Source: Candidatus Zixiibacteriota bacterium (GTDB lineage: Bacteria > Zixibacteria > MSB-5A5 > GN15 > FEB-12). Taken from it: a stretch of 54,115 bases of DNA. Under the pieces are notes generated by a model. The model worked only from the letters and a program-made list of their open reading frames with translations. It searched no databases and had not been told where the DNA came from. A program made the position numbers and the translations under genes. The DNA is taken from NCBI GenBank assembly GCA_020344395.1, contig CP070824.1, forward strand, positions 1,836,072 to 1,890,186, in the 5' to 3' direction. This document shows positions 12,454 through 52,950 of this stretch, piece by piece (within the stretch, counting starts at the first letter, position 1; every line of letters starts with the position of its first letter).

Positions 12454-12458
12454 ACACG

Positions 12459-16827: not shown

Positions 16828-16830
16828 GAG

Positions 16831-18625: not shown

Positions 18626-18639
18626 GGAATTTGACTAAT

Positions 18640-18656
18640 GGCGGCAGTTTGCCGCC
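18640..18656 (+). other. Intra-operon GC hairpin between the glutaredoxin-like gene and nuoN
   Basis: GGCGGCA-GTT-TGCCGCC: a perfect 7-bp stem with a 3-nt loop and no U-tract. Possibly an mRNA processing or stability element rather than a terminator. Confidence 0.3.
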
Positions 18657-18667
18657 GCGGATGATAT

Positions 18668-38189: not shown

Positions 38190-39533
38190 TCATGAGTTCT
38201 TAAGCCCATACTCTTTCACTTTCTTGGACAGATGAGCCCGATCGACCTTCAGCTTGCGAGCTGCCTGTGATATATTGCCGCGGGATTCCCGCAGGGTGCC
38301 GGCAATCAATTGCCTTTCATAAGCACTGACCTGCTCCGACAGCGAACCGGATGATCGGCTCGCTGCCGATGCAAGTACTGAACCGCGGGGATCAGCAGCC
38401 AGATCGTCGGGTTCGATCCTCTGACCTCTGTATTGGATGGTGAGCCGCTCGATCAGGTTCTTCAGCTGACGAACATTTCCGGGCCAGTCGAGCGAACTGA
38501 GGTAGGCCAGGGCAGAAGCGCTGAGTTGTGTCGCTCCGGTCGGGTCGTATCGGCGGAGAAAGTCACCCACCAGCAAGGGTATGTCTTCTGCGCGTTCGGC
38601 CAGTGACGGCACATGAATCTCAAAGACGGAGATACGATAATATAAATCGGCACGGAATCTTCCGTCGGCGACCAACCTCTCCAGGTCGTGATTTGTCGCG
38701 CAGATAATCCGCACGTCAACTTTGCGGCGTGTATCCGAGCCCAAAGTCTCGATCTCACCCGTCTCCAGAGCTCTCAGAAGCTTGGCCTGGCAGGGTAAAG
38801 GGAGGTCGCCTATTTCGTCGAGGAACATCGTCCCGCCGTCGGCAAGCGCGAATTTACCGGGGTAGTCTCTGACAGATCCGGTAAATGACCCTTTCATGTG
38901 GCCGAACAGTTCGGATTCAAACAGTGTCTCAGGAATGCCGGGGCAATTCACCTTTACAAAGGGACTCTGACGGCGGTTGCTTCCCAGATAAACCTGTGTC
39001 GCCACCAGTTCCTTTCCAGTGCCGTTTTCTCCGGTCACCAGAACGGTCGTATCGGTAGGGGCGACATCTGCGATAGTCGCGGTCAGGCTTGAGATGGCCT
39101 TGGATTCTCCGAGGATGCGACATGTTTCTTCCATTTCGCCAACCTGAACTGCTCGCTGGCGGTTAGCTGTCACCAGAGCCAGACAGGCTCGCACCGATGC
39201 TATCAGCTTCTCCGGCGGCACGGGCTTTTCCAGGAAGTCGGCCGCCCCCAGCCGCACCGCATCCAACGCCATAGGGATATCCGCCTGCCCGGATACAACA
39301 AGCACCACGGGCGGCCAGCTCTCACCCTTGAGTTGCCTAAGGAAGTCGATGCCCGACATACCCGGTAGCTGCAAGTCAAGGACGATCAGATCAAACGACC
39401 GTCTGGCGCACTTCTCAACAGCCGCCTCCGCGGTCTCCGTGATCGCGGTTTCATATCCCTCGTCCTTTAGCAGGGACGAAAAGGAGAGCGTGATGTTTGG
39501 CTCGTCGTCTACAATCAGGATGCTCGCTGCCAT
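38190..39533 (-). CDS. Sigma-54-dependent response regulator (NtrC/NtrX family: REC-AAA+-Fis HTH)
   Basis: 447 aa. REC domain with DLIVLDLQLPGMSG, Walker A GENGTGKE, ESELFGH, the GAFTGA-equivalent loop GSFTGS, and a C-terminal HTH NISQAARKLKVDRAHLSKKV. Confidence 0.9.
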   Translation of the reverse strand: MAASILIVDDEPNITLSFSSLLKDEGYETAITETAEAAVEKCARRSFDLIVLDLQLPGMSGIDFLRQLKGESWPPVVLVVSGQADIPMALDAVRLGAADFLEKPVPPEKLIASVRACLALVTANRQRAVQVGEMEETCRILGESKAISSLTATIADVAPTDTTVLVTGENGTGKELVATQVYLGSNRRQSPFVKVNCPGIPETLFESELFGHMKGSFTGSVRDYPGKFALADGGTMFLDEIGDLPLPCQAKLLRALETGEIETLGSDTRRKVDVRIICATNHDLERLVADGRFRADLYYRISVFEIHVPSLAERAEDIPLLVGDFLRRYDPTGATQLSASALAYLSSLDWPGNVRQLKNLIERLTIQYRGQRIEPDDLAADPRGSVLASAASRSSGSLSEQVSAYERQLIAGTLRESRGNISQAARKLKVDRAHLSKKVKEYGLKNS

Positions 39534-39539
39534 GTGACC

Positions 39540-40973
39540 TTACCGTATGGGTATTTCAAGAGTTACTGTTGTCCCTTCGTCCGGGCTCGACTCCACCCGG
39601 AGCTGTCCGCCGAGTTCAGCGATTGACTTCTCTACGATGGCCAGGCCCAACCCGGTGCCCTTCTCCTTGGTCGTGTAATAGGGTAAACTGGCCTGTGCCA
39701 TAACGTCCGACTTCATTCCAACACCGCCGTCGCTGACTATGATAAGAGCCCGATCATCTCCGGCGGCCAGGCGAAGTTCGACTCTCTGACCCTTCGAGGT
39801 AGCATCAATGGCGTTCTGCACCAAGTTGTGTAGTGCCTCTCTGAGATAGGCCAGATCGGAGTTGACGACCAGGCCGGACGGCGGTGCCACCACGATGAAA
39901 TCGCGCTCTTCCAGTTGTTCGCGGTAAAGGTTGGAGATTGATGCGAGCAGGGCCGTCAGATCAACGACTCCGAGCTTTGGGGGCGGCAGTTTGGCGAGGT
40001 GGGAGAATCGTTCGGCCAATTGCCTGAGGTGCTTGACCTCCTCGGAAGCGGCCTTGAGAGGTTCATATATCTGATCGTATGCATCGGTGTCGGCCAGCTG
40101 TTTCTCTATTCTGTAGAGTGACACCAGCAAGGGCTGCAAAGGGTTTCTCAGTTCATGAGCAAATCGTCGTGCCACCTGACGCCATGCTGCTACGCGCTCG
40201 GTCTGAGCAAGGCGTCGCGTTGTATCATCGAGTCGCCGTGCCATGTGGTTGAAGCTGTCGATAAGCGAGGCTACCTCGCCATCCCCGGTGCGTTGTATTT
40301 GCTGCTGAAACTCGCCCGCGGCAATCTTCTGCGAGGCTTTGCTTAATTGCTGCAAAGGTCGGGCCAGGCGGCGGGAGAGTCGGGATGACAGGTACCAGGC
40401 TCCCAATATGCTGGCTCCGGAGACAATGATGAAGAGAAGGGACAGAAACAGTAAATATTCTGAGCGTAACCGACGGCTGACATTCTGTGCGGCCGTTCCG
40501 CGGTGAATCATTTCAAGGAGCGCGCCATATGCCTCGTCATGGATAATTCCCCCATAAATGAATCGAGTGGAGTCAATCGGCCTGACCACGAACTGACAGA
40601 GTGTGTTGTTCAGTACCACAAATCCCCTGGATTTGGCCCTTCCCGCCTCAACGATGCGACCGGCCAGATCCGGGGAGAGCCGGTGGTGCGTCTTTATGGC
40701 TTCCGTTCCGTCGGTATCTGATAGAAAGACGAAGTCAGGAAATCCCGGGGAGGCCATCTGCGATGAAGCGGTCTCGACGAGGGCGCTCTCAAGGCGGTCG
40801 AAGAGGATGTTGCTATGATATTCTGCGATCTGCGACGGGTCGGAAGGCGAATCGGGACGGAACATTTCGCTCTCCGTCGTCAGATAGTAGCCGATCAAGG
40901 TGATGATGATGATCGGGACGATTGAAAAGACCAGGAAGAGCCTGAACAGTCTGCCCTGGAAGCCGGCTTTCAT
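39540..40973 (-). CDS. Membrane sensor histidine kinase (NtrY-like: 2 TM-HAMP-HisKA-HATPase)
   Basis: 477 aa with two TM helices flanking a periplasmic loop of about 150 aa. HAMP (LARPLQQLSKASQKIAAGEF), H-box FAHELRNPLQPL, N-box LVQNAIDA, and G2 GTGLGLAIVEK. Ends 6 nt upstream of the regulator gene. Confidence 0.85.
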   Translation of the reverse strand: MKAGFQGRLFRLFLVFSIVPIIIITLIGYYLTTESEMFRPDSPSDPSQIAEYHSNILFDRLESALVETASSQMASPGFPDFVFLSDTDGTEAIKTHHRLSPDLAGRIVEAGRAKSRGFVVLNNTLCQFVVRPIDSTRFIYGGIIHDEAYGALLEMIHRGTAAQNVSRRLRSEYLLFLSLLFIIVSGASILGAWYLSSRLSRRLARPLQQLSKASQKIAAGEFQQQIQRTGDGEVASLIDSFNHMARRLDDTTRRLAQTERVAAWRQVARRFAHELRNPLQPLLVSLYRIEKQLADTDAYDQIYEPLKAASEEVKHLRQLAERFSHLAKLPPPKLGVVDLTALLASISNLYREQLEERDFIVVAPPSGLVVNSDLAYLREALHNLVQNAIDATSKGQRVELRLAAGDDRALIIVSDGGVGMKSDVMAQASLPYYTTKEKGTGLGLAIVEKSIAELGGQLRVESSPDEGTTVTLEIPIR

Positions 40974-41560
40974 GAGGACGGACTACTGTTAGGGCTGGAA
41001 CGAAATCTTCTGCTGTAATCGTCCAGGGCCCGGCGATGGGATTCGAAGGCGATCTTATCAGGAATCTCATCGAACCCGAAAAACTTCACTTCGAGAGCAT
41101 CATCCGAGGCCTGCAGACGACCCCCGATTACGTCGGCGAGGTAGAGCAGGAGTACGGCATTTACGCGCGGGTCGTCCTTGCCCGTGTACACCTCAAAGAA
41201 TCCCGTGAGTCTGACCTTGAGACCGGTTTCCTCTTCCAGTTCCCGCACGGCTGTATCGCTCGGATGCTCGCTCCATTCCATGAACCCGGCCGGAAGACAC
41301 CACCAGTTGATCTTTGGGGGGTGGGCTCGCTTCACGAGCAGCACGCGGTCGTTCTCAACTATAATGGCTGCGGCGGCCGGAACAGGATTCTGGTAATAGA
41401 TGAAGCCGCATTCAGGGCTATCGCAGATCTTTCGGGGCAGACCATCCAGGTGTTTGAGGACCAGCGGGTTTCCACAAAGGGGGCAAAAACGGTATCCGCA
41501 AAAATCGTCTTTGCGTTCAGAGACCTTCCCGGCGTCAAAGTTCTCGTGCTTAGGTTTCAT
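40970..41560 (-). CDS. NUDIX hydrolase with N-terminal C4 zinc ribbon
   Basis: 196 aa. Zinc ribbon CPLCG...CDSPECG. A perfect NUDIX box GFMEWSEHPSDTAVRELEEETGL. The start overlaps the PP2C gene by 11 nt, and the stop overlaps the kinase start (ATGA). Confidence 0.85.
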   Translation of the reverse strand: MKPKHENFDAGKVSERKDDFCGYRFCPLCGNPLVLKHLDGLPRKICDSPECGFIYYQNPVPAAAAIIVENDRVLLVKRAHPPKINWWCLPAGFMEWSEHPSDTAVRELEEETGLKVRLTGFFEVYTGKDDPRVNAVLLLYLADVIGGRLQASDDALEVKFFGFDEIPDKIAFESHRRALDDYSRRFRSSPNSSPSS

Positions 41561-43814
41561 TCATGCCACCCATGTTGTTTACCTTGAGTATCACCATCGT
41601 GGTATCATCCTGAGGTGGATAGCTGGGGTCGAAACTCTGTACGTCTCTCTTCAGCGCGTCTATGATGGCAGCCGGTTCCATGGTACGTTGCTTGACCACG
41701 AACTCCTGGATACGATCCTCGCCGTATTCCTTGCCGTCAGCGTCCATAGCCTCAGACAGTCCGTCCGTGAACAAGAACAGCAGATCATCGTCTTGAAGTT
41801 GCACGGCGGCTGACTTATAATCCATGCCGGGGAGGGCTCCGATGATCGGTCCTCCCTGGTCCAGATGTTCAACCTGTCCGTTGGCCCGCACCAGGATCGG
41901 GTAGTTATGCCCGGCGTTGGCATAGTGAAAAGCGTTGTCTTCCCGGTCATACTCTCCGTAGAACAGTGTGACGTACTTCTCTGCTGATGTGGATTTATGA
42001 ATCTGCTGATTCATGTTCTTCATTATTTCGGGGATCGGATTACCGTTGTTGACTTCACTTCGTATGATGGCCTGTATCTGGGCGATGAGCAGAGCAGCCG
42101 GCATTCCTTTGCCCGAGGCGTCAGCGATAACCACCCCCACCCGGTTTTCATCGGCCATCGGAATGAAATCGTAGAAGTCACCCCCCACCGTGCGTGAGGG
42201 TGTGGACTCTGCACAGATCATGGCGCACGGCAGGTCCGGCGGCCTTTCCGGGAGCAGATCGAGCTGAATCTGCCGGGCCATGCTCATCTCTTCCTCGAGG
42301 CGGATTTTTTCCAGCGAATCTGCATAGAGCCGTGCGTTGGTCAGGGCTGTCACCATTTGGTTGGATAAGACTCTAAGCACGTTGTAATCTTCCGGGGTGT
42401 ATCTGTATCCGGCTGCTTTGGAGGTCAGGGCCAGGAAACCGACCAGATGCTGGGCATCCTTCAGCGGCAGGATCAGGCGGACTCTCTGTTCTTTCAGGAT
42501 GGCGGCGAGGGCGGAGCCTTCTACATATTCTCTGAGACTCGCAAACGGAGTTGGTTTGTCCAGCAGGTTGATGCCCCTGAGCATCATGTCATCGCGGTTT
42601 ATGACCGTACGCCGGGGGTAGTCATCGCTCTGGAGAATAGCGTACTCTCCCACGCTGTCATCATAGAGAACAAAGTACACGTGGTCCACCAACAGAGCTG
42701 TCTTGAGGGTCTCTTCAATCGTCTGGCGCAGCTTCAGGGAGTCGAATATGGAAATCACTTGACGTGAAAAACGCTCCATGATGTTTCGGTAGTCGGTGCG
42801 GGTCCGCACGAACATGGAGCGGATAATGTTGTCAATCCAGTTGCTGAAGGTCGGGAATAACAGCAATATGAACACGATAAAGAAGTAACTGACTGTTTGG
42901 GCTCGTTCGCCGAATATGGGGGCGAGGAACTGCTCCGCTCTCAGGCTCAGGATAATGTATACTCCAACCAGAATCACCGAAGTGAGGGTATAGATAAGAG
43001 ACTGGCGGAAAACCAGCCGTACGTCGAGAAACTGGCGTCTTACAATAGCGAGGGCAAAGAACGACGCCAGAGTCATAAGGGCGGCAAAGCGGAGGAATGT
43101 TATCAGCGCATCCGGAATCTCATTGGGGAATATCTGCGATCCCAGGTACGACAGGGCGAAGAGAACGGCTGCCAGTCTGAGTCCCCGGATGACGGTGTTT
43201 GTTTGTGCAGTCAGTCTTGGATTGGTCTGTCGCCTTCTGCCGGTTTCAAGGAAGTAAAAGGCGACGGCTATGTAAAGCAGGTTGATGGTGCCAAAGACCG
43301 GCTCCGCATAGGCGCGCAGGAAGCCTAACAGGAGGGTTACCCTGGACACAACGTAGGCCAGGGGTCCCAGTACTATGCTGAATATACCCCCCTCTTCAGC
43401 GCGAGCCTCGAGGCTATCAGAGAAGTTAGCTATATCACCGAATGCCAGCATGAGCACCAAATGCATCACCTGTGGCACGAGAAGAAGGTAGATGACGGTC
43501 GGTCGCTTGAAATTTCTCAGACGATTATACGGGAAGAGTAGCGAGAATGCGACCAGCGTGGGGAAGAACAACTCCCACACCAGATAGAAGCTATATAGTG
43601 TGGTTCGTTCGATGGGCGTGGCGCCCAGTGCATCCTGAGCCATGATGGAACCCAGGGCTGCAAAGATAGGCCCCAGCCCCGCCAGGAACAGCAGGCCTCC
43701 GGTGATACGGTTGACACGGCTCGTGAAATTATCCCGAGTGACCGTAATCCCGAGAAAGACGAGAAATCCTCCGGTTACAAGAAAGAGAAGGTTCTTTATG
43801 AGGTCAGCGTTCAT
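41550..43814 (-). CDS. Membrane-bound PP2C/SpoIIE-family phosphatase (RsbU-like) with polytopic N-terminal sensor and GAF-like linker
   Basis: 754 aa with about 9-10 TM helices in the first 330 aa. PP2C motifs GGDFYDF, VVIADASGKGMPAAL and LFLFTDGLSEA. Confidence 0.85.
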   Translation of the reverse strand: MNADLIKNLLFLVTGGFLVFLGITVTRDNFTSRVNRITGGLLFLAGLGPIFAALGSIMAQDALGATPIERTTLYSFYLVWELFFPTLVAFSLLFPYNRLRNFKRPTVIYLLLVPQVMHLVLMLAFGDIANFSDSLEARAEEGGIFSIVLGPLAYVVSRVTLLLGFLRAYAEPVFGTINLLYIAVAFYFLETGRRRQTNPRLTAQTNTVIRGLRLAAVLFALSYLGSQIFPNEIPDALITFLRFAALMTLASFFALAIVRRQFLDVRLVFRQSLIYTLTSVILVGVYIILSLRAEQFLAPIFGERAQTVSYFFIVFILLLFPTFSNWIDNIIRSMFVRTRTDYRNIMERFSRQVISIFDSLKLRQTIEETLKTALLVDHVYFVLYDDSVGEYAILQSDDYPRRTVINRDDMMLRGINLLDKPTPFASLREYVEGSALAAILKEQRVRLILPLKDAQHLVGFLALTSKAAGYRYTPEDYNVLRVLSNQMVTALTNARLYADSLEKIRLEEEMSMARQIQLDLLPERPPDLPCAMICAESTPSRTVGGDFYDFIPMADENRVGVVIADASGKGMPAALLIAQIQAIIRSEVNNGNPIPEIMKNMNQQIHKSTSAEKYVTLFYGEYDREDNAFHYANAGHNYPILVRANGQVEHLDQGGPIIGALPGMDYKSAAVQLQDDDLLFLFTDGLSEAMDADGKEYGEDRIQEFVVKQRTMEPAAIIDALKRDVQSFDPSYPPQDDTTMVILKVNNMGGMNET

Positions 43815-43841
43815 ATCCCAAAGCTTCGCATTTTGAGCCGG

Positions 43842-44261
43842 TCAGAAGGCTTTTGCGATGGTGACCGTGGTTCCGGTCGTAGCAGCCTCAATGTCAACAG
43901 AATCCATGAGCGATCTCACGATGAAGATACCTCGGCCGATTTCCTTCATCAGATTTTCCTCGGCCAATGGATCTTCAATCGAATCAGGGTCAAAACCTGC
44001 ACCCTGATCAGATATAGTTATTTTGACCGAACTGTTCTCACGCAGTAATTTGATTGTGACCGACTTGTCCGCTGCTGACTTGTTGCCGTGCAGCATGGCA
44101 TTGTTTACGAGTTCCGAGACCGATATGGCGATGTCGGCTATGATCGATTCATCCACCCCGAAACCCCGCAGGGTGGCCTCGAGAAAGGCGTCGATATCGG
44201 CCAGGTACTCCTGGTCGGACGGGACTATCATGGTGTCCCCGATGATCCTGGGTCTGTCCAT
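43842..44261 (-). CDS. RsbW/SpoIIAB-like anti-sigma-type serine kinase (HATPase_c_2)
   Basis: 139 aa. N-box ELVNNAMLHG, G1 DQGAGFD, G2 GRGIFIVRSLMD. Confidence 0.75.
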   Translation of the reverse strand: MDRPRIIGDTMIVPSDQEYLADIDAFLEATLRGFGVDESIIADIAISVSELVNNAMLHGNKSAADKSVTIKLLRENSSVKITISDQGAGFDPDSIEDPLAEENLMKEIGRGIFIVRSLMDSVDIEAATTGTTVTIAKAF

Positions 44262-44346
44262 TGTTGCAGGTTACTCCAAATGAAACAGGCAGACGGTGCC
44301 CCGTCCGCCTGAGGCAACAGGATTATAGTAATTCAATACGGGTCAT

Positions 44347-44685
44347 CTATTTGAAGCTTGCCACCGCATCTTCAATTGAGTCGAAGGCTTCAAAGACCGA
44401 AACTAGCTTGGTAATTGTGAGCAGCGACTGGATTTTGTCGGTGACATTGGCCAGCTTGAGAATGCCTTCATTGTTGCGAAGAGTGGTGTAGCCGGAGATA
44501 AGGATGCCCAGCCCGGTGGAGTTCATCCAGTCAACTTTGCTCAGATCAACGACAACCTTCTTCTTCCCTTGATCGATGTATTCGTAGAGTTTGTCGTGGA
44601 GGAGGGTGGCGTCCGGTCCGCCCATGATCTTTCCCTTGGGCTCCAGGATGACAATACCATCCTGTTCGCGGTCGGCTAATCTCAT
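44347..44685 (-). CDS. STAS-domain anti-anti-sigma factor (RsbV/SpoIIAA-like)
   Basis: 112 aa. Phosphorylatable-Ser context VDWMNSTGLGILI, and the typical C-terminal helix. Confidence 0.8.
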   Translation of the reverse strand: MRLADREQDGIVILEPKGKIMGGPDATLLHDKLYEYIDQGKKKVVVDLSKVDWMNSTGLGILISGYTTLRNNEGILKLANVTDKIQSLLTITKLVSVFEAFDSIEDAVASFK

Positions 44686-44876
44686 GTCAGTTTCTCCTAA
44701 TATAACTCTTACGTAGTCGCAAAAGTCGGGTTCCGCATTTCATCATGCGGTGGCGTCAATGGATTCGTGCTAAGTTCTTAATTAGCTTGCTGTTGGCAGG
44801 CATGTCAAGACGTTTTTGCCTGACATTGGTCGGTACGGACCGAGGAGGCGGACGTAGCTCGCTGAGTCCGTTCCGC

Positions 44877-45311
44877 TTACGCGCTCTTGCGGTCGGATGA
44901 GCAAATCTCTTGATGGGCCAGTGCTTTGGTCGGGCAGAACATGGCACAGACGGGTTCACCGCCGCACAGGTCACATTTTACGACGAGACTGTGCTGGTCG
45001 TCGGGCAGGGAACATCCAAACGGGCATGCCGCCACACAGGCCATGCAGCGAACACATCTGTCGTAATCCAGCTCAAGAGCGCCTGTCTCCGGATTCCGGG
45101 CGATGGCGTCAACCAGACAAGCTTTGACGCAGGCGGCGTTTTCACACTGTAGGCAGACCACCGGTACCCAAGCCTCATCGGTGCCTGCTGATAGAGGGTA
45201 AATGCGGCTCAACCCCGGCTTACCGTTCACAGAATGGGAGAAGGCGCAGGCCAGTTCACATGTCCGGCAGCCCGTGCAGAGATTTGGAGTAACCACAAAC
45301 CGCTTATCCAT
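44877..45311 (-). CDS. CooF/HycB-like polyferredoxin (four [4Fe-4S] motifs)
   Basis: 144 aa. Motifs CTGCRTCELAC, CLQCENAACVKAC, CVRCMACVAACP and CDLCGGEPVCAMFCP. Confidence 0.8.
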   Translation of the reverse strand: MDKRFVVTPNLCTGCRTCELACAFSHSVNGKPGLSRIYPLSAGTDEAWVPVVCLQCENAACVKACLVDAIARNPETGALELDYDRCVRCMACVAACPFGCSLPDDQHSLVVKCDLCGGEPVCAMFCPTKALAHQEICSSDRKSA

Positions 45312-45314
45312 GCA

Positions 45315-46088
45315 TTACTCCTTCCGATCCCACTCAGCCAACTTGCCCAGGGTCAGAGCCAATTGGCGACGATGCGACTCGTGGTCGTGCTCGAAGTAAT
45401 CGGCCGGAATATTACGTTGCCGGGACAGATGCTCGGCAAACTCCACCGTTATCGTGGGCCGACCGGTGTCCTTGCAGGTAAGCAGCTTGAACTTCTTCCC
45501 CCAGATGGTTCGTGTTTTGCCCTTGTCCTTGTACTGAATGAAATCAGTCGGGCAGACCTGAGCGCAACTGAGGCAACCAACACAGTCCGGCGGCGGCTCC
45601 TTCAACGGGGGGGCAATCTCTTTACCATGACCTCGGTTTACCGATGAGATGGCGTGAAATCCCATGGCATCACACACTCGTGTGCAGAGAGCGCACAGAA
45701 TGCAGTTGTCTCCATCAGGGACTTTCTGGAAGCTGGTAGCCGTGATGCCATACTCGGCGGCCATTTCACGGATCAGAGCAGCGCCCGGTGATCGAGCCAG
45801 GTACAGGTCCAGCAGGGTCTTGCGCAACTCGATGACTTCCGGTGCGTGCGTGCTTATGATGAGGCCTTCTTCTGCCGGGTATAGGCATGCCGTGACATAG
45901 TTCTTCCAGCCATTCCATTCGGTCTTAGTAATTTCAACAGTACACAGTCGGCAGGCGCCGTAGGGTTCGACGGCATCGTGATGGCATGTGGAAGGGATAT
46001 CGATCTTCAGCCGCCTGATGACGGACAGGAGCATTTCGCCTTCGTCTGCTTGCACCAGTTTGCCGTTTACGGTAAGGTTTACCATCAC
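45315..46088 (-). CDS. NuoG-N-terminal / HoxU-like FeS protein ([2Fe-2S] + 2x[4Fe-4S]) with no catalytic domain
   Basis: 257 aa. 2Fe-2S context IPSTCHHDAVEPYGACRLCTVEI, plus CILCALCTRVC and CVGCLSCAQVCP. No H-cluster or molybdopterin motifs. The His-ligated cluster motif (HPLDCPxC) appears absent. ATG 46085 is an alternative start. Confidence 0.8.
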   Translation of the reverse strand: MMVNLTVNGKLVQADEGEMLLSVIRRLKIDIPSTCHHDAVEPYGACRLCTVEITKTEWNGWKNYVTACLYPAEEGLIISTHAPEVIELRKTLLDLYLARSPGAALIREMAAEYGITATSFQKVPDGDNCILCALCTRVCDAMGFHAISSVNRGHGKEIAPPLKEPPPDCVGCLSCAQVCPTDFIQYKDKGKTRTIWGKKFKLLTCKDTGRPTITVEFAEHLSRQRNIPADYFEHDHESHRRQLALTLGKLAEWDRKE

Positions 46089-46094
46089 AATCTC

Positions 46095-47948
46095 CTAGGT
46101 AACGTCAATGGCGTCAAAGCGGCAAACTGCATAGCAGGCACCACACTGGGTACACTTTTTCTGATCAAGTATATGAATTTCATCCTTCTTGCCGGTAATG
46201 GCTTCATAGGCGCAGGCCGGGATACAGGCCAGGCAGCCGGTACATTTGTCATTAATCTCGTACGTGATAAGATTTTTGCAGACTCCGGCCGGGCAGCGTT
46301 TGTCGCGTATGTGAGCGAGGTACTCGTCCCGGAAATACCTGATGGTACTGAGGAACGGGTTCGGGCCGGATTTTCCCAGGCCGCAGAGTGAGCCCCGGAT
46401 GATTACATCCGAGAGCTGCTCCATGCGGTCCAGATCGGCCTCCACCGCTTTGCCGTCGCTTATCTTCACGGCCAGCGCGTGCAGCTGGTAGAGCCCCTCG
46501 CGGCACGGAACGCACTTGCCGCACGATTCCTTTACGAGGAACTCCAGGAAGTACTTGGCGACATCGACCATGCACGTCTTGTCGTCCATTACGATCATGC
46601 CGCCCGAACCCATCATTGAACCGGCCTTTGTCAGCGTGTCAAAGTCCACCGGCAAATCCAGCTTCGATTCCGGGAGACATCCCCCCGAGGGCCCGCCGGT
46701 CTGGATCGCCTTGAACGGGCGATCATCAATAATTCCGTCGCCAATGTCGTAGATGATTTCCCTGAGTGTGATACCCATGGGAACTTCAATCAGGCCCGTG
46801 TTTCGGACTTTCCCAACCAGTGAGAACGCCTTGGTCCCGGAGCTTCCGTCAGTGCCGATTTTCTTGAACCACCCGGCACCCTTCATTATGATCACCGGTA
46901 CGTTGGCGTAAGATTCAACGTTGTTTAAGACAGACGGCTTGTCCCACAAGCCCTTGATGACCGACCGAACATATTTGGCTCGAGGCTCGCCAACTTCACC
47001 GGCCACCGACTTCATGAGGGCCGACGATTCACCACAGACAAAGGCACCGGCGCCACGAGCGATGCTGATCCTGAATGAGAAATCGGTGCCGAGAATGTTA
47101 TCGCCGAGCAGTCCTTCTTCCTCAAGCTGTCTGATAGCTTCGTAAAGACGTTCCACAGCCAGCGGATATTCTTCGCGGACATATATATATCCCTCGGTGG
47201 AACCGACGGCATAAGCTGCGATGAGCATCCCTTCGAGAACAGAATGCGGGTCGCCTTCCATAATGGCCCTGTCCATGAAAGCCCCCGGGTCGCCTTCGTC
47301 ACCATTACAGAGGACGTACCGCGTATCCGATTCTACATTGGCACACGTGCGCCACTTGCGACCGGCCGGAAAACCTCCGCCGCCCCGTCCGCGCAGACCG
47401 GACTTGGATACGGTCTCAATCACCTGATCCGGCGACATTTTGAGAAGCGCTCTGGCCAGTCCCTGATATCCACCGCCTGCGATGTAGTCATCGAGGCTGT
47501 CAGGTCTTATGTGACCGAGGTTCCTCAGAGCTACTCGGTTCTGATGCCTGTAGAAATTTATCGATGAGTACTTCTTCTTTGTTTTGCCTGTGGCCGGCTC
47601 GGTGAACAGAAGGCGATCGATGATCTCATTCCTGGCGAGCGTTTTCGAGACGATCTCATCGATGTCCTTCGGCTTGACTTTTGTATAGAACAGGCCATCC
47701 GGTTCAACGACGACTAGGGGGCCCTTTTCACACAGCCCGTGACACCCTGTTTCTCTGACAGTCTCTACCGTGAAGCCCTTGATTTTCTTCTTTTTCAATG
47801 ACTCTCTGAGACCGTCGGCAATCTTCTGGGCACCACAGGCCAGGCATCCGGGACCGCAGCATACTATCACTTTGCGCGGGAACTTCTTTTCCCCGGCAAG
47901 AAGCTGTGTCTTTCGCTTATTCAGCTGCTGTACAGTCCTGATGCACAT
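46095..47948 (-). CDS. NuoF-like NAD(H)-binding flavoprotein, HydB/HndC-type (N-terminal 2Fe-2S domain, C-terminal 2x[4Fe-4S])
   Basis: 617 aa. N-terminal thioredoxin-like Cys set (CCGPGCLAC...GCHGLC), GLRGRGGGGFPAGRKW, and ESCGKCVPCREG. C-terminal CTGCLACIPAC and CTQCGACYAVC. Confidence 0.9.
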   Translation of the reverse strand: MCIRTVQQLNKRKTQLLAGEKKFPRKVIVCCGPGCLACGAQKIADGLRESLKKKKIKGFTVETVRETGCHGLCEKGPLVVVEPDGLFYTKVKPKDIDEIVSKTLARNEIIDRLLFTEPATGKTKKKYSSINFYRHQNRVALRNLGHIRPDSLDDYIAGGGYQGLARALLKMSPDQVIETVSKSGLRGRGGGGFPAGRKWRTCANVESDTRYVLCNGDEGDPGAFMDRAIMEGDPHSVLEGMLIAAYAVGSTEGYIYVREEYPLAVERLYEAIRQLEEEGLLGDNILGTDFSFRISIARGAGAFVCGESSALMKSVAGEVGEPRAKYVRSVIKGLWDKPSVLNNVESYANVPVIIMKGAGWFKKIGTDGSSGTKAFSLVGKVRNTGLIEVPMGITLREIIYDIGDGIIDDRPFKAIQTGGPSGGCLPESKLDLPVDFDTLTKAGSMMGSGGMIVMDDKTCMVDVAKYFLEFLVKESCGKCVPCREGLYQLHALAVKISDGKAVEADLDRMEQLSDVIIRGSLCGLGKSGPNPFLSTIRYFRDEYLAHIRDKRCPAGVCKNLITYEINDKCTGCLACIPACAYEAITGKKDEIHILDQKKCTQCGACYAVCRFDAIDVT

Positions 47949-47951
47949 ATC

Positions 47952-48452
47952 TTACTTTTTTGTCCTTGCCTTGACCTTTGCTTTAGCTTTGGCCTTCGCC
48001 TTCGTTTTAGTGAGTCTGCGGGCAGAGTTGACGTTGACCGTTCCATGGTACTTGTCATTGACAATCACCACCGGAGCCATGGCACACGCGCCGACACAGG
48101 CCACCACCTCGAGTGAAAACTCCAGATCTTTGGTTGTCTCACCGGCCTTTATCTTCAAGGAGTTCTCCAGTTGGTCCTGAATCAGTTTGGCGCCACGGAT
48201 ATGGCAGGCCGTTCCGACGCACACCCGGATGTTACGTTTACCCTTGGGGTTGAGGCTGAACGCATTATAGAAAGTGGCCACCGAAAACACTTTGCTCAAG
48301 GGTACTTCCAGGGTCTCGGCAGTTTTCGTGAGTGCTTCGCAGGGAAGGTAGTTGTATTCTCGCTGGATTTCCTGGAGCACCATTATCAGCGACTCGGGTC
48401 CTTTGGGATGCCGGTCAATCAACTCCGGCAGCTTACTGAAATCGTGCCTCAT
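47952..48452 (-). CDS. NuoE-like [2Fe-2S] protein, HydC/HndA-type, with Lys/Ala-rich C-terminal tail
   Basis: 166 aa. Cys pattern VCVGTACHIRG ... ACVGACAMAP. Tail RRLTKTKAKAKAKAKVKARTKK. ATGA overlap with the OFOR gamma gene. Confidence 0.85.
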   Translation of the reverse strand: MRHDFSKLPELIDRHPKGPESLIMVLQEIQREYNYLPCEALTKTAETLEVPLSKVFSVATFYNAFSLNPKGKRNIRVCVGTACHIRGAKLIQDQLENSLKIKAGETTKDLEFSLEVVACVGACAMAPVVIVNDKYHGTVNVNSARRLTKTKAKAKAKAKVKARTKK

Positions 48453-49024
48453 GCCCTGAGTTTCCCCTTCGATTCAGCTTTGCCGCGGTTGTAACCTTCT
48501 TCGAGCACTTTCAGGTTGACTTCAAGCAAGCCCTTTTTCTTACCCAGTTTTACCTTGAGGGTCTCTTTGAGGTGATTGTAGCTGACTATTCCGGTGGCCC
48601 CCACGAAGGCACCCAGCATAACGATGTTGGTCACCTTCGGGCTGCCGGCATCGATGGCAATCCGGTTCGCCGGCAGCAGAATCTGAGTGATGTCGGTTCG
48701 GTCTGTTGTGGCGGTGATGAGCGATGAGTTTACGAGCAGCAGACCGCCCGGCCTTACTTTGGGACCGAACTTATCGAATGAAGGACGGTTGAACACGCAA
48801 GCGGCTCGGGGGTTGTTAATGATCGGTGATCCGATTCTCGAATCAGACACCACCACCGTACAGTATGCCGTTCCGCCGCGCATCTCCGGACCATAGGAGG
48901 GTATCCATACAACCTGCTTGCCTTCTTCAATGCCGGTATAGGCGAGCAATTGCCCGGCCACCATGATCCCCTGGCCGCCGAAGCCGGCCCATGTCACTTC
49001 ATACTGGGCCATCACTATCCTCAT
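48449..49024 (-). CDS. 2-oxoacid:ferredoxin oxidoreductase, gamma subunit
   Basis: 191 aa. AGFGGQGIMVAGQLLA and SYGPEMRGG motifs. The start overlaps the beta subunit gene (ATG 49012 is an alternative). Confidence 0.85.
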   Translation of the reverse strand: MRIVMAQYEVTWAGFGGQGIMVAGQLLAYTGIEEGKQVVWIPSYGPEMRGGTAYCTVVVSDSRIGSPIINNPRAACVFNRPSFDKFGPKVRPGGLLLVNSSLITATTDRTDITQILLPANRIAIDAGSPKVTNIVMLGAFVGATGIVSYNHLKETLKVKLGKKKGLLEVNLKVLEEGYNRGKAESKGKLRA

Positions 49025-49775
49025 CTGATTCAGGCGATTTGAAGCATCCCAGGGGGAAGTACGGCGTCATTTTTTCCTGCAGCCACGCGGTGGCCTCATC
49101 AGGGGTCAGTCCCCAGTTGGTCGGACAGGTGGACAACACTTCTATAAGTGAGAAACAGGTACCGGCGGCCTGGTAGGCGAAAGCCTTGCGGATGGCCCGC
49201 TTGGCTCCGATTATGTTCTGTGGAGTGTGTACGGCTACCCGCTCAATGTAAGCTGGCGTGTTCAATGTTGACAGCAGTTCTGCCACTCGAACCGGCTGGC
49301 CGGTCTGCTGGACATTTCGTCCTATGGGGGAAGTGGTGGTAATCTGGCCCTCCAGCGTGGTGGGGGCCATCTGTCCGCCGGTCATCCCGTATATGGCATT
49401 GTTAACAAAGATAGTGGTGAATTTCTCCCCCCGGTTGGCCGAGTGAACGATCTCGGCCATGCCTATGGATGCGAGGTCACCGTCACCCTGATATGTAAAC
49501 ACAATCATGTCCGGTCGGACGCGTTTGAACCCGGTCGCCAGGGCCGGGGCGCGTCCGTGAGGTGCTTCGAGGAAGTCACAGTTAAAGTAGTTGTACGCAA
49601 GTACGGAACATCCCACCGGAGCGATGCCGCAGGTGCGTTCACGGAGGTTCAGTTCGTCAAGAGTTTCAGCCACCATCCGATGAATCACTCCGTGCGTGCA
49701 ACCCGGACAGTAGTGTGTGACTACATCCCTGAGCGATTCCGGTCGACGAAATACGGTTTTGGCAAGCTCCGACAT
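48999..49775 (-). CDS. 2-oxoacid:ferredoxin oxidoreductase, beta (TPP/[4Fe-4S]) subunit
   Basis: 258 aa. YCPGCTHG, TPP-binding GDGDLASIGM ... NNAIYGMTGGQ. Confidence 0.9.
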   Translation of the reverse strand: MSELAKTVFRRPESLRDVVTHYCPGCTHGVIHRMVAETLDELNLRERTCGIAPVGCSVLAYNYFNCDFLEAPHGRAPALATGFKRVRPDMIVFTYQGDGDLASIGMAEIVHSANRGEKFTTIFVNNAIYGMTGGQMAPTTLEGQITTTSPIGRNVQQTGQPVRVAELLSTLNTPAYIERVAVHTPQNIIGAKRAIRKAFAYQAAGTCFSLIEVLSTCPTNWGLTPDEATAWLQEKMTPYFPLGCFKSPESDEDSDGPV

Positions 49776-49777
49776 GG

Positions 49778-50878
49778 CTACTTTCTTTTTTTGGCCGGCC
49801 GCCCGCGCCGGCTCTTCTTCTTTATCAACTTCTTAATCTGATCTTTGACTTCCTCCGGAGTCGGAACAATGCCGCCGGTCCGTCCAAAGAAGTTGACAGG
49901 CCGGGCACCAGCGACGGCCTTTTCTACATCTTCAACCATCTGGCCCATGCTCATCTCGACGACCAGGACCGATTCGATATTCTTGCGGGTGGCTTCCTTT
50001 CGCAGCGCCACTTCAGGGTAAGGGAAGAGCGAAATGGGCCGGAACAGCCCGACCGAGTAGCCTTCGGGCTCCAGGTCGTCGATGACGGTCTGGCAGATAC
50101 GCGCCATGGTGCCGTACGAGACAATGAGCACCTTGTTTGATGGCTTCACTTTGTAATTCTCGAAGCGTATCTCTTCCTTTTTGGCCTGCTCATATTTCTT
50201 GTGCAGGATGATGGAATTCTCTTCGAGGGTAGTAGGATCCAGAAACAGGGACCGGATGATGAGAGGATCCCGGTCGCTGGCTCCGGTGGCGGCCCAATCC
50301 TTCGGCGGCAGTTCCGGTTCGCTATAGCTGTCAGGGAACTCGACCGGCTCCATCATCTGCCCGATCATGCCATCGCCCAGAATCATGACGGGGTTGCGGT
50401 ATTTGTCGGCCAGATGAAAGGCCAACATGGTCAGGTCGACGGCTTCCTGAATGGTTGACGGAGCAAGTACCAGTAACCGGTAGTCGCCATGGCCACCACC
50501 CTTGACAGCCTGAAAATAGTCGGATTGGGCCGGCAGTATCCCTCCCAGGCCGGGCCCTCCCCGGACGATGTTCAGAACCACGCAGGGCAGTTGTGACCCG
50601 GCCATATAGGACAGGCCTTCCTGCATGAGACTGATTCCCGGGCTGGATGATGAAGTGAATACGCGCTTCCCGGTGCAAGAGGCGCCCAGGATCATGTTCG
50701 CGACGGCTATCTCGCTTTCAGCTTGCAGAAAGACACCACCCACCTCCGGCATCCTTTTGACCAGATACTCGGCCACCTCTGACTGGGGTGTGATGGGATA
50801 ACAGAAGTAATTCGTTGCTCCGGCTCTGATGGCGGCCTCAGCAATCGCTTCGTTGCCTTTCATCAGTATTCTAGCCAT
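49778..50878 (-). CDS. 2-oxoacid:ferredoxin oxidoreductase, alpha subunit, with basic AT-hook-like C-terminal tail
   Basis: 366 aa. MKGNEAIAEAAIRAGATNYFCYPITPQSE N-terminus typical of PorA/KorA/OorA. Tail KKLIKKKSRRGRPAKKRK. Confidence 0.9.
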   Translation of the reverse strand: MARILMKGNEAIAEAAIRAGATNYFCYPITPQSEVAEYLVKRMPEVGGVFLQAESEIAVANMILGASCTGKRVFTSSSSPGISLMQEGLSYMAGSQLPCVVLNIVRGGPGLGGILPAQSDYFQAVKGGGHGDYRLLVLAPSTIQEAVDLTMLAFHLADKYRNPVMILGDGMIGQMMEPVEFPDSYSEPELPPKDWAATGASDRDPLIIRSLFLDPTTLEENSIILHKKYEQAKKEEIRFENYKVKPSNKVLIVSYGTMARICQTVIDDLEPEGYSVGLFRPISLFPYPEVALRKEATRKNIESVLVVEMSMGQMVEDVEKAVAGARPVNFFGRTGGIVPTPEEVKDQIKKLIKKKSRRGRPAKKRK

Positions 50879-50907
50879 GTGCAGGTCCTGATCCTAACTT
50901 CACAAAC

Positions 50908-51141
50908 TCAATAATCGAACAGGCTGTATGCTGTTCCGTTGACGTTGACTTCGATGGCTGCATCCGGACATACAATCGCACAGATGCGACAGCCTAGGCA
51001 CCGAGAGGGGTCATGCATCAGGGCATAGAAGTAGCCTCTGAGAGTAATCTCTTTGGACAGGGAGATAATGCCCTGCGGGCAGGACTTAACACAGAGTTCA
51101 CAGCCCTTGCAATGATTCTTATCTACCGCAATCGTCGGCAT
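50908..51141 (-). CDS. 2-oxoacid:ferredoxin oxidoreductase, delta (2x[4Fe-4S] ferredoxin) subunit
   Basis: 77 aa. CKGCELCVKSCP and CLGCRICAIVCP. The delta-alpha-beta-gamma order matches OorDABC/KorDABC-type rather than PorGDAB-type clusters. Substrate is not assignable. Confidence 0.8.
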   Translation of the reverse strand: MPTIAVDKNHCKGCELCVKSCPQGIISLSKEITLRGYFYALMHDPSRCLGCRICAIVCPDAAIEVNVNGTAYSLFDY

Positions 51142-51156
51142 GACTGTTCTGTGTCC

Positions 51157-51888
51157 CTAGCGGCGCTGCTCCCACGGTTTTAGTAGCTCACGATTGAGTG
51201 TCAACACCGGCAGGTTGATCTTCCGAGGATCAAACCTCCCGGCAATGCTGGTTTCCATGCTGACAAATTTAATCGGCAGGCCGGTCCTGGCGGCGACTTC
51301 CCGTGACACCTCCAGTCCCTCCAGGATGATCTCATCAGTCGTGTCATCCATTAAATGAGTATTAGAGATAATTCCGGTCAGTTTCAAGCCGGCCGCATCT
51401 TCAATCTCGCCGATCACTGATAATGATCCTTCAACCGTGGAGGTGAAGGGTCGCCTGAGATTGAGAACCATGAGAAATTCGTAACTGTCTGCCGAAAAAG
51501 CATCGCGCAGTGAGCTTAACACTCTGGCCCCGAGGTCGTCGCCGCCGACATCGAGGATCAACAGTCCATCACGCTTCTGGATGGCGGACTTGATCTCAGG
51601 GATTATGATGGGCAGGTCGGCTTCAGCCAGAGACCCGGGCGGAACAAGGGACTTCACGCCAAGGTCGGCCAGTACTTCAGCGGCCTCCCGTGACCGAAAG
51701 TAAGGATTGATAATGTCCAGATCGCCGATAGATACCGGTTTATCTCCCTGTTGAGCCAGAACGCGTGCGAGGTTTACCGAAACCTCCGACTTGCCCGATC
51801 CGAATCCCCCTACAATCACGACGACCTCCCGGTCAAAAACCGGAGTTCTGAAGCGGTTTTCCGAACTCGTCATGCTGGCTATTTCCAT
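51157..51888 (-). CDS. P-loop NTPase (MinD/ParA/CooC-like SIMIBI fold), first gene of the OFOR operon
   Basis: 243 aa. Walker A VGGFGSGKSE, DLDIINPYFRS, and Walker B-like LLILDVGGDD. Family not firmly recognised. Confidence 0.6.
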   Translation of the reverse strand: MEIASMTSSENRFRTPVFDREVVVIVGGFGSGKSEVSVNLARVLAQQGDKPVSIGDLDIINPYFRSREAAEVLADLGVKSLVPPGSLAEADLPIIIPEIKSAIQKRDGLLILDVGGDDLGARVLSSLRDAFSADSYEFLMVLNLRRPFTSTVEGSLSVIGEIEDAAGLKLTGIISNTHLMDDTTDEIILEGLEVSREVAARTGLPIKFVSMETSIAGRFDPRKINLPVLTLNRELLKPWEQRR

Positions 51889-52045
51889 AAGAGTCGTTGT
51901 CAGAAGGCGCGTGTCTTGCCGGCGTCCAGGAGAGAAAAACCTCCAATTAGGACTAAATCCGTTTTGTTTCGTCTCATACTAAATATGGCCGTATGAACGG
52001 CTAAAGTCAATAGGATATGTGAAAAAAATAACGATTCTTCCCTGT

Positions 52046-52074
52046 TTGACACTGTCACAACGACATATTATACT
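52046..52074 (+). promoter_or_regulatory. Near-consensus sigma-70 promoter for the lipoprotein gene
   Basis: TTGACA (52046-51), 17-nt spacer, TATACT (52069-74). Confidence 0.5.
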
Positions 52075-52116
52075 ATTATGCTAGTTGAACTTAAGAGAAT
52101 CGCAAAGCAGGACAGA

Positions 52117-52950
52117 ATGTATAGGAATTGCCGTAAATACGTGATATCGACGCAGTCGTCCGAATTGGAACTGCTCCTTATATCGGCGATATTGGTGCTG
52201 GCTCTGGGTGTGTTTTCGGGCTGTACAGAGGAGGTGGGTTCACCTTGCGACCCAAAGCCCGAGGGTGCCTATGACGACTGGCTGACTTATCGGTATGAGA
52301 ACTTCGTTATTCTTTATCCTCCGAAGCATCCCAACGAATCCGGACTTGAAAGCATTGGTACGAACTACATCAATTGTATTGACAGGGTAGTGACGGACCT
52401 CCGCATGTCTCCTCTGACAGATTGTATCCTGTTTGTCTACTACACCGGGTATGGTTCAGGCCGCGAGATGACCGGTCGCCAGTACCCATTTGCCACCGAC
52501 ACGGCTATTCACTTCTGGCTGCCGAGCTTTCCCGGCCCGGTTCTGATGCAATACCTGTTACCTCTATGGGTGCCAGGTGAGCCACACTACCGGTTTCTAA
52601 AACATGGTCTGATATCTCTATATGATTTTTCCGGCCAGGCATACCATGAGTTCACGGTCGGGTATATCAACAAAGACAGATTCATAAAGCTGGCGGACCT
52701 TGCCGCTGACACGACCGTCAACAGCAACACCGAGCGCCATCAGTCGGCCGAGGCTGCATCGTTCTGTGCCTTTGTCATGGGTCAGTTCGGTGCGGACACT
52801 TTGAAGGCGCTGTATCAGTCGAGCGAACCGTTCGATCAGGCAGTGCCGGCGCTGTTCGGTATGTCCGTAGAGGCTCTTGAGAATTACTGGCTCCGTTACG
52901 TGAGGGCGTCAGTGCCGGCTGATTCGATTGTTGATTCCCTCTGGGATTAG
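52117..52950 (+). CDS. Hypothetical lipoprotein
   Basis: Lipobox LALGVFSG|C. The ORF-track ATG at 52078 lies only 3 nt after the -10 hexamer. ATG 52117, with AGGA 5 nt upstream, is therefore the likely start. Confidence 0.55.
   Translation: MYRNCRKYVISTQSSELELLLISAILVLALGVFSGCTEEVGSPCDPKPEGAYDDWLTYRYENFVILYPPKHPNESGLESIGTNYINCIDRVVTDLRMSPLTDCILFVYYTGYGSGREMTGRQYPFATDTAIHFWLPSFPGPVLMQYLLPLWVPGEPHYRFLKHGLISLYDFSGQAYHEFTVGYINKDRFIKLADLAADTTVNSNTERHQSAEAASFCAFVMGQFGADTLKALYQSSEPFDQAVPALFGMSVEALENYWLRYVRASVPADSIVDSLWD

Follow-up and report, generated by a model that had tools for sequence, protein, structure and literature searches.

The Bfu family of electron-bifurcating enzymes, whose activity tightly couples NAD(H), ferredoxin and a third substrate, was defined by Schut et al. 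(2022; PMC9304861), who predicted among its members a 'Por-Bfu' (Type 2) of seven subunits, BfuABC plus PorDEFG, from 12 uncharacterised sequences of Chloroflexi and Proteobacteria in BfuB clades 35, 44 and 45. The WorA homologue of Por-Bfu has a Zn-finger and no C-terminal helix, and Por-Bfu has no WorS homologue (Feng et al. 2025). In the solved WorABCSL complex (PDB 9MQX; PMC12318220), electrons leave the catalytic subunit through WorS and enter WorA at cluster A4, and WorS is held by the Zn-finger and the C-terminal adaptor helix of WorA. Structural work places the site of bifurcation in Bfu enzymes at the 'flavobicluster' formed by B1, flavin mononucleotide (FMN) and C1, with Zn in B2 and the binding of ferredoxin at B3/B4 (PMC11829005). 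Here we describe a nine-gene cluster at 44877-51888 on the minus strand of a 54,115-nucleotide stretch (the window) of Candidatus Zixiibacteriota bacterium contig CP070824.1, which encodes a four-subunit 2-oxoacid:ferredoxin oxidoreductase (OFOR) next to a Bfu module. We consider it rather probable that the nine genes specify one multi-subunit cytoplasmic OFOR-Bfu bifurcating complex and one accessory NTPase.

A first-pass annotation, made from the DNA letters, had proposed an NAD(H)-coupled OFOR complex of a kind not characterised biochemically. The literature searched agrees with the latter point: it yielded no biochemistry on Por-Bfu or on a purified OFOR-Bfu, and the portions of the Ignavibacterium, Melioribacter and Caldithrix genome papers that were available do not discuss an OFOR-NuoEF cluster. 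The structural parts of the proposal hold. The architecture itself, however, had already been named Por-Bfu (PMC9304861), and an NAD-linked OFOR exists in PadEFGHI. The cluster is not of the published Por type and is probably a distinct variant. With the prediction of Por-Bfu in 2022, the OFOR-Bfu idea is already in print as a hypothesis.

The nine open reading frames (ORFs) are co-directional and nearly abutting, at the coordinates the first-pass annotation had given them, and are transcribed in the order P-loop NTPase, OFOR delta, alpha, beta, gamma, BfuC, BfuB, BfuA, S (Table 1). Pfam and NCBIfam profiles were used for the domain content of all nine products, and both the order and the content proposed earlier were borne out. 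Recomputed coordinates reproduce the junctions as well, which range from a 26-nt overlap to a 29-nt gap: +15 nt for P-loop/delta, +29 for delta/alpha, +2 for alpha/beta, -26 for beta/gamma, -4 for gamma/BfuC (a shared ATGA), +3 for BfuC/BfuB, +6 for BfuB/BfuA (+9 from the ATG) and +3 for BfuA/S. The 191-nt spacer downstream was likewise recovered.

The arrangement recurs well outside this contig. One genome per species (GTDB) was scanned with the BfuA alignment, by pattern and by tblastn, and 507 genomes with a BfuA relative were found. Synteny was then scored by tblastn with the nine window proteins in the best 80 of the 507 loci, to which the linkage claim is limited. All nine genes are colinear within 6.5-7.7 kb in 55/80 species-level loci, and a further 21/80 are cut by contig ends, with every visible gene consistent with the nine-gene order. 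Of those left over, one is interrupted by an N gap, one is ambiguous, and two from Planctomycetota carry neither the P-loop gene nor S. Protein identity of the loci to the window runs from 40% to 79%. Record titles name Zixibacteria, Ignavibacteria, Bacteroidia, Delongbacteria, Myxococcota/'Deltaproteobacteria', Planctomycetota, Acidobacteriota (Thermoanaerobaculia, Holophagae) and Riflebacteria, among others, a phylum spread taken from the labels of metagenome-assembled genomes (MAGs), which may be imprecise. Intergenic distances have medians between -12 and +20 nt, and the gamma/BfuC junction, where the OFOR meets the Bfu module, has a median of -3 nt in 69 loci. The recurrence of the nine-gene order across species-level loci refutes chance adjacency, and linkage unique to this contig, which would have spoken against the first-pass proposal, was not what we found. 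Two gene fusions, P-loop-delta in locus L043 and alpha-beta in L047, are single cases and were not treated as evidence.

The flavin module was compared with the marks by which Schut et al. separate bifurcating BfuB from non-bifurcating NuoF, HoxF and FdsB (PMC9304861): the B2 ligands Cys/His/Cys/Cys, present throughout the 1558 Bfu sequences analysed there; the motifs DEGDPGAFMDR in the NAD domain and GAGAFVCGE in the FMN domain (their Suppl. Fig. 10); and the extra clusters B2-B5. BfuB of the window aligns over its full length with HydB of the bifurcating Thermoanaerobacter (T.) kivui hydrogenase (PDB 8a6t_B, E 3.6e-225) and with WorB of the bifurcating aldehyde oxidoreductase (PDB 9mqx_B, E 5.7e-224). 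Pfam places a thioredoxin-like 2Fe-2S domain at residues 26-102 and a 2x[4Fe-4S] domain at residues 565-616, the N- and C-terminal additions of HydB/HndC-type proteins that the first-pass annotation had read from the translation. Both motifs are present, DEGDPGAFMDR at 217-227 and GAGAFVCGE at 299-307, the latter with Phe and not Tyr at position 303, a residue that is 100% conserved in 70 homologues. The B2 (Zn) ligands C459, H546, C552 and C557 are each 100% conserved. Ligands were also located for B1 (C476, C479, C482, C522), B3/B4 (C569-C579 and C599-C609) and B5 (C30, C35, C69, C73), and the ligand Cys of BfuB are conserved at 97-100% (70 sequences). BfuC matches PF01257 (E 4e-47), and its C78, C83, C119 and C123 are conserved at about 92%. 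The window proteins thus hold ligands for all of the sites described in PMC11829005 (B1-FMN-C1, B2, B3/B4). With the B2 ligands and both motifs in place, the earlier HydB/HydC-type assignment stands. Judged by its residues, the BfuBC core has all cofactor ligands and every published sequence mark of bifurcating Bfu enzymes.

An internal negative control is available, since a complete canonical nuoA-N operon lies in the same window at 5470-20122 on the plus strand, with NuoE at 8072-8548, NuoF at 8545-9882 (445 aa) and NuoG at 9892-12453 (853 aa). This NuoF, which is 40% identical to the BfuB core, has the non-bifurcating versions of the motifs, CNADESEPGTCKDR and GGGAYICGEETAL at the motif sites, i.e. 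ESEPGTCKDR and GGGAYICGE, and it is without both extra iron-sulfur (FeS) domains. The canonical NuoG carries PF10588. What marks a complex I N-module, namely a NuoF of about 440 aa without extra FeS domains, a NuoG with a molybdopterin-like domain and a location in a nuo operon, is not found in the cluster. By these features the flavin module is Bfu-type and not complex I.

BfuA contains a Fer2_4 domain and one dicluster domain, and its 12 ligand Cys, which account for one [2Fe-2S] cluster (A1) and two [4Fe-4S] clusters (A2 and A4), are 100% conserved in 78 sequences. Pfam finds in it no PF10588 domain (His-ligated A3), no H-cluster domain and no molybdopterin domain, and there is no A5; the earlier description of a NuoG-like protein that stops after its FeS domains was therefore correct. 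On this domain content BfuA is 'Type 2' in the scheme of Schut et al., with A1, A2 and A4 only and no catalytic domain. Its best solved relative is WorA, the 247-aa chain A of the WorABCSL structure from Acetomicrobium mobile (9mqx_A, E 3.7e-46), and HydA comes next (1e-24). The AlphaFold 2 (AF2) model of BfuA also gives 9mqx_A as the top Foldseek match, over 245 aligned columns, and shows a helix at residues 235-250 after the Zn-finger position, with 18 residues beyond that position. The WorA-type Zn-finger itself (CxxC..CxxC; BfuA residues 200-242) is intact in 39/78 homologues. It is reduced to a single Cys or none in the window protein, its close relatives and one Thermoanaerobaculales locus, all of which keep the C-terminal helix.

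Among solved structures S is closest to WorS (9mqx_E, E 1.4e-28) and next closest to AorA, the wire subunit of an aldehyde oxidoreductase (8c0z_C, E 5.9e-27); its 16 Cys are conserved at about 95% in 75 sequences. For BfuA, BfuB and S, respectively, chains A, B and E of the single entry 9MQX are thus the best or nearly the best matches among solved structures. Because WorS is the wire subunit of a proven bifurcating Bfu enzyme, S is by analogy a plausible electron wire, as had been suggested for it as a CooF-like protein. The best NCBIfam match of S is the N-terminal part of PadI, which is the beta subunit of NADH-dependent phenylglyoxylate dehydrogenase. Positions 9-137 of the PadI profile match window S and positions 224-365 match the window OFOR beta, so that both modules are fused in a named NADH-dependent OFOR. 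This fusion may be taken as a further, separate indication that S binds to the OFOR.

The superfamily features of an OFOR are complete. In beta there are a TPP_enzyme_C domain, the GDG...NN motif and one [4Fe-4S] cluster, with Cys23, 26, 56 and 217 conserved at 94-96%; alpha has POR_N and a YPITP motif in its translation; gamma is a POR domain protein (PF01558, E 1.3e-38; TIGR02175, 86.9 against a cut-off of 81.1); and delta holds 2x[4Fe-4S] in Fer4 dicluster domains, with all 8 Cys 100% conserved (64 sequences). The nearest NCBIfam models to delta are OGOR_delta and OorD, both below cut-off, and neither beta nor delta reaches an NCBIfam equivalog cut-off. Alpha matches NCBIfam NF005507 'VorB' over its full length with 525 bits against a cut-off of 399, compared with 103 bits on PorA_Arch, where the cut-off is 550; its nearest solved structures are 1yd7, 8ys5 and 6n2n. 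We conclude from these profiles and motifs that the OFOR is catalytically complete and Vor/Kor-like. Alpha is assigned to the VorB subfamily (branched-chain 2-oxoacids), outside the Por families, and the substrate prediction is left at the subfamily level.

Two of the products end in Lys/Arg-rich tails. That of OFOR alpha (..KKLIKKKSRRGRPAKKRK, 49778-49840, minus strand) also occurs in several close Zixibacteria- and Ignavibacteria-labelled relatives and not in other phyla. That of BfuC (..KTKAKAKAKAKVKARTKK, 47952-48020, minus strand) is window-specific.

The OFOR is the only catalytic module encoded in cis, in agreement with the first reading of the DNA. Among 36 window ORFs outside the cluster, comprising every window ORF of at least 220 aa and five shorter ones beside the cluster, Pfam found no hydrogenase, no formate dehydrogenase and no tungsten aldehyde oxidoreductase. 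The sole molybdopterin-domain match among these ORFs is the canonical NuoG, and neither the cluster nor the other scanned ORFs contain an AOR/WOR domain, as in a WorL-type tungstopterin subunit.

The cluster resembles published Por-Bfu in that four OFOR subunits are encoded directly upstream of BfuC-BfuB-BfuA and in that BfuA is an FeS-only protein of about 250 aa (A1, A2, A4). As a Por-type contrast we used locus L082 (P0187; GCA_034414775.1), which was retrieved with a BfuB fragment printed in the supplement of Schut et al. The same fragment, used in a search for the Dehalococcoides Por-Bfu, gave no Dehalococcoides protein, and all its matches were fragments, 73% identical at most; another candidate, P0214/L081, was rejected as an unrelated frameshifted NuoF-like locus. 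The order in L082 is PorC-PorD-PorA-PorB-BfuC-BfuB-BfuA (gamma-delta-alpha-beta), with Por models at or just below their cut-offs. Identity to the window is 49% for BfuC, 53-60% for BfuB and 44% for BfuA, and it is 26-31% for the OFOR subunits (26% for the PorA-type alpha). L082 lacks both the S and the P-loop gene, and its BfuA stops at the Zn-finger (..CPNCR), without the C-terminal helix; without S and the BfuA helix, it matches the published description of Por-Bfu (Feng et al. 2025). The BfuB gene of L082 (8669-10357) contains an in-frame TAG, and the product breaks off just behind the B2 ligands and lacks the C-terminal 2x[4Fe-4S] domain; possible explanations are a sequencing error, a pseudogene or a genuine truncation.

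The cluster differs from Por-Bfu in four ways: a Vor/Kor-like OFOR in the order delta-alpha-beta-gamma, a WorS-type wire, a helix-bearing BfuA and the NTPase. The Por-type (pyruvate) OFOR by which Por-Bfu was defined is not what the window encodes; and where Por-Bfu has no WorS homologue and no C-terminal helix on BfuA, the window has a WorS homologue directly downstream of BfuA and a predicted helix. Set against L082 and the published description, the cluster appears to be a distinct OFOR-Bfu architecture, undescribed in the literature searched. We go further only tentatively, since the following seems to us possible but more doubtful than the existence of the complex: that this is a second OFOR-Bfu class, assembled independently of Por-Bfu from a Vor/Kor OFOR, a WorS-type wire and a WorA-type BfuA, with a dedicated Cys-free SIMIBI NTPase that assembles or gates it, and that it is widespread in uncultured anaerobes of many phyla, where it would carry out an obligately coupled, bifurcating oxidation of branched-chain or other 2-oxoacids to give NADH and reduced ferredoxin.

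By analogy with 9MQX and the general Bfu mechanism, the CoA-dependent oxidative decarboxylation of a 2-oxoacid would free electrons singly. They would pass from thiamine pyrophosphate (TPP) to the beta cluster, the delta clusters and the S clusters, and then through A4, A2 and A1 to the B1-FMN-C1 flavobicluster; as the window BfuA is without A3, the route S, A4, A2, A1 is the one expected, as in Wor-Bfu. Per two turnovers, two electrons would leave as hydride to NAD+ and two via C1 and B3/B4 to external ferredoxin. The predicted net reaction is 2 R-CO-COO- + 2 CoA + NAD+ + 2 Fd(ox) -> 2 acyl-CoA + 2 CO2 + NADH + 2 Fd(red). Neither acceptor would be expected to be reduced alone; the precedents are Wor-Bfu, in which neither acceptor is reduced alone, and the published Por-Bfu proposal (PMC9304861). 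From the potentials tabulated by Schut et al. (PMC9304861), the oxidative direction would be favoured, and running the enzyme as a synthase would be less favourable than it is with ferredoxin as the sole donor.

Several points weigh against a bifurcating OFOR-Bfu complex. Physical association and coupling are deduced only from conserved gene order and from homology. With a couple near -500 mV, NAD+ and ferredoxin could both be reduced directly (Schut et al., PMC9304861), which makes the need for bifurcation not obvious. The Zn-finger that buttresses the adaptor helix in WorA is degenerate in the window BfuA, and the AF2 model of BfuA is of low overall confidence, with a predicted local distance difference test (pLDDT) score of 62.9 (72-86 in the C-terminal domain). 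In addition, the two Planctomycetota MAG loci L072 and L076 have neither S nor the NTPase nearby, so that neither protein is strictly required.

The energetic point also bears on an NAD+-dependent OFOR that does not bifurcate, in which the Bfu module would serve as a diaphorase only, like PadEFGHI, with no obligatory ferredoxin. NAD-linked OFORs are known as a curated NCBIfam family, S has PadI as its best NCBIfam match, and 2-oxoacid oxidation near -500 mV can reduce NAD+ directly (PMC9304861 Table 1). Against this, BfuB has retained the ferredoxin-interacting 2x[4Fe-4S] domain at its C-terminus and the 2Fe-2S domain at its N-terminus, together with the B2 ligands and the Bfu NAD/FMN motifs, features that are absent from characterised non-bifurcating homologues and about 100% conserved in 70 relatives. 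The Pad equivalog scores fall far below their cut-offs (alpha 67 against 700, gamma 71 against 300, S 82 against 700, beta 47.5 against 700). PadEFGHI needs an FAD/NAD-binding PadH subunit. No PadH-type flavoprotein is encoded in the cluster, nor any Pad-family protein beyond the weak alpha, beta, gamma and S matches, and we regard the non-bifurcating enzyme as unlikely.

Of similarly low probability is that the complex runs in reverse, as a confurcating 2-oxoacid synthase in which NADH and reduced ferredoxin drive the reductive carboxylation of acyl-CoA for an anabolic or CO2-fixing purpose. For Por-Bfu, Schut et al. (PMC9304861) proposed pyruvate synthesis for gluconeogenesis, and in L082 a class II fructose-1,6-bisphosphatase gene stands directly 3' of the Por-type locus. 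In 30 related loci (among L002-L061) there is also a citryl-CoA lyase-like gene (NF004869, 309 bits against a cut-off of 212) near the cluster, mostly about 1.1 kb upstream and divergent (e.g. L010:873-1643). All 30 are Zixibacteria-labelled, Ignavibacteria-labelled or unlabelled MAGs, and the gene is absent from the window; since it is confined to these labels, we treated it as lineage synteny and rejected it as a clue to a reverse tricarboxylic acid (TCA) cycle or 2-oxoglutarate synthase role. No gluconeogenic or reverse-TCA gene adjoins the cluster in the window. On the values in PMC9304861, moreover, NADH (about -280 mV) plus ferredoxin (about -500 mV) is a weaker donor than ferredoxin alone for a couple of about -500 mV.

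Two independent adjacent enzymes, a standalone OFOR and an orphan BfuABC-S with its partner elsewhere (e.g. a hydrogenase or formate dehydrogenase), are very improbable: although the complex itself is a deduction and delta-bearing OFORs normally act alone with free ferredoxin, the nine-gene order is kept in every informative locus among the 80 (55 colinear, 21 more consistent), under record titles of several phyla and at the identities given above, the overlap at the gamma/BfuC junction is conserved (4 nt in the window), BfuA has no catalytic domain, and the 54-kb window offers none of the candidate partners among its scanned ORFs.

The accessory component of the favoured OFOR-Bfu complex would be the P-loop protein, whose gene is present in all 55/55 complete loci. 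It has a Walker A motif GGFGSGKS, no Cys, and invariant motifs that include DLDxxNPYFRSREA, LDVGGDDxGARVLSSL and LxKPWE. It reaches no Pfam or NCBIfam cut-off, the best sub-threshold match being ParA/NUBPL (20.5 bits against 27.1), and sources label it CbiA, MinD-like or hypothetical. The AF2 model is confident (pLDDT 86.5), and its nearest folds are the G domains of the signal recognition particle (SRP) proteins Ffh and FtsY, with TM scores of 0.5-0.6 and about 22% identity. As the model matches only SRP-type G domains, the protein was classed as a SIMIBI-class NTPase without a close solved relative. An Mrp/NBP35/NUBPL-type cluster carrier, at which the weak Pfam match hints, was rejected on account of the missing Cys and the missing deviant Walker A lysine; a protein that has no Cys is unable to carry an FeS cluster in the manner of Mrp/NBP35. 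Its most likely role is in assembly or maturation, although this is speculative. The S gene and the P-loop gene are jointly missing in only two loci with enough flank (n = 2), which hints that they go together.

Table 1. Positions in the window of the nine genes of the cluster and of the non-coding regions that flank it.
Feature	Position	Strand	Remarks
P-loop (SIMIBI-class) NTPase	51157..51888	-	first gene; 243 aa longest ORF
OFOR delta	50908..51141	-	77 aa, 2x[4Fe-4S]
OFOR alpha	49778..50878	-	366 aa, POR_N + PFOR_II
OFOR beta	48999..49775	-	258 aa, TPP-binding, one [4Fe-4S]
OFOR gamma	48449..49024	-	191 aa, PF01558 POR
BfuC (NuoE/HoxE-like)	47952..48452	-	166 aa, [2Fe-2S] C1, PF01257
BfuB (HydB-type NuoF)	46095..47948	-	617 aa, FMN/NAD site, B1-B5
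BfuA (WorA-like truncated NuoG/HydA N-terminus)	45315..46088	-	257 aa; 256 aa from ATG at 46085
S (WorS/CooF-type polyferredoxin)	44877..45311	-	144 aa, 16 Cys = 4x[4Fe-4S]
Divergent intergenic region upstream of the cluster	51889..52077	.	sigma-70-like hexamers, consensus matches only
191-nt spacer between the cluster and the downstream STAS / anti-sigma kinase / PP2C phosphatase genes	44686..44876	.	

At NCBI the identical proteins, which belong to a Candidatus Zixiibacteriota MAG (contig of 3.44 Mb), use internal ATG starts for two of the genes (Table 1), giving BfuA as 256 aa and the P-loop protein as 238 aa from 51873. An exact look-up of the 257-aa, GTG-started form of BfuA gave no match; the deposited form begins at the next ATG. 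Of the boundaries proposed for the cluster in the first-pass annotation, the downstream spacer stands, and the divergent promoter region upstream rests on consensus hexamers only, at 52010-51982 (-) and 52046-52074 (+), with 8 hexamer matches in the scanned region against 4.4 +/- 2.3 in shuffles. No Rex operator was found in 51889..52077, and elsewhere in the window only chance-level matches occur. Inverted repeats are absent from the upstream intergenic region, and two short ones lie within the spacer; no Rfam family and no tRNA was found. The spacer contains no terminator-like site, the first one on the minus strand being at 44311-44286.

Directly downstream on the same strand (38190-44685) are genes for a STAS anti-sigma antagonist (44347-44685) and a HATPase_c_2 anti-sigma-type kinase (43842-44261), followed by a 754-aa membrane SpoIIE/PP2C phosphatase (41550-43814), a HAMP histidine kinase and a sigma-54 response regulator. 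The STAS, HATPase_c_2 kinase and SpoIIE/PP2C genes also lie 3' of the cluster in 16-18/55 complete loci. Although the stretch between the cluster and the STAS gene holds no terminator-like site, this adjacency is probably lineage synteny. On the other side, a 290-aa protein is encoded divergently from the cluster at 52078-52950 (+); it occupies the same position in 24 related loci and has no Pfam or NCBIfam match. In six loci, represented by the Alphaproteobacteria-labelled L055, a 171-aa ferritin/rubrerythrin-like four-helix-bundle protein is encoded about 130 nt downstream of S.

OFORs hold a central place in the carbon and amino-acid metabolism of anaerobes, and ferredoxin and flavodoxin are assumed to be their only redox partners. 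If the OFOR-Bfu reading is right, such an enzyme would send half of its electrons straight to NAD+, and the predicted ATP, NADH and ferredoxin balances would change for MAG reconstructions of Zixibacteria, Ignavibacteria, Acidobacteriota, Planctomycetota and Myxococcota, in which the present annotations of the genes read 'NADH dehydrogenase', 'hydrogenase diaphorase' or 'VorB'. The cluster is compact (about 7 kb), its nine genes are well defined, and 9MQX provides a template for four subunits, which makes it a good first target for the purification of an OFOR-Bfu. It also offers an uncharacterised NTPase family whose sole known context is the nine-gene cluster.

Among described enzymes, Wor-Bfu, WorABC(SL)3 of A. 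mobile, provides the counterparts of BfuA, BfuB and S in WorA, WorB and WorS, and as in WorA a C-terminal helix follows the Zn-finger position of the window BfuA. The two differ in the catalytic module, which is a TPP/FeS OFOR in the window and the tungstopterin subunit WorL in Wor-Bfu, and in the degenerate Zn-finger of the window BfuA. Window S ends about 11 residues after the aligned core, compared with about 21 in WorS, so that window S may lack the nanowire-building helix of WorS. For the NTPase gene no published Wor counterpart was found. HydABC, the T. kivui [FeFe]-hydrogenase (PDB 8A6T), matches BfuB and BfuC in architecture and ligands, and the N-terminal domain of its HydA is homologous to that of BfuA; the cluster is without the H-cluster domain, A3 and A5, and separate subunits supply the third substrate. 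The NADH-dependent phenylglyoxylate dehydrogenase PadEFGHI (NCBIfam NF045762-NF045766) is likewise an OFOR that delivers electrons to NAD+, but in the window the coupling to NAD+ would run via the BfuBC flavin module and not via a Pad-type subunit. Finally, the four-subunit OFORs of the Oor, Kor and Vor types (Helicobacter (H.) pylori OorDABC; the Methanothermobacter VorB subfamily, NF005507) share the delta-alpha-beta-gamma order; whereas these enzymes work with free ferredoxin or flavodoxin and lack a flavin/NAD module, the OFOR of the window is accompanied by a Bfu module.

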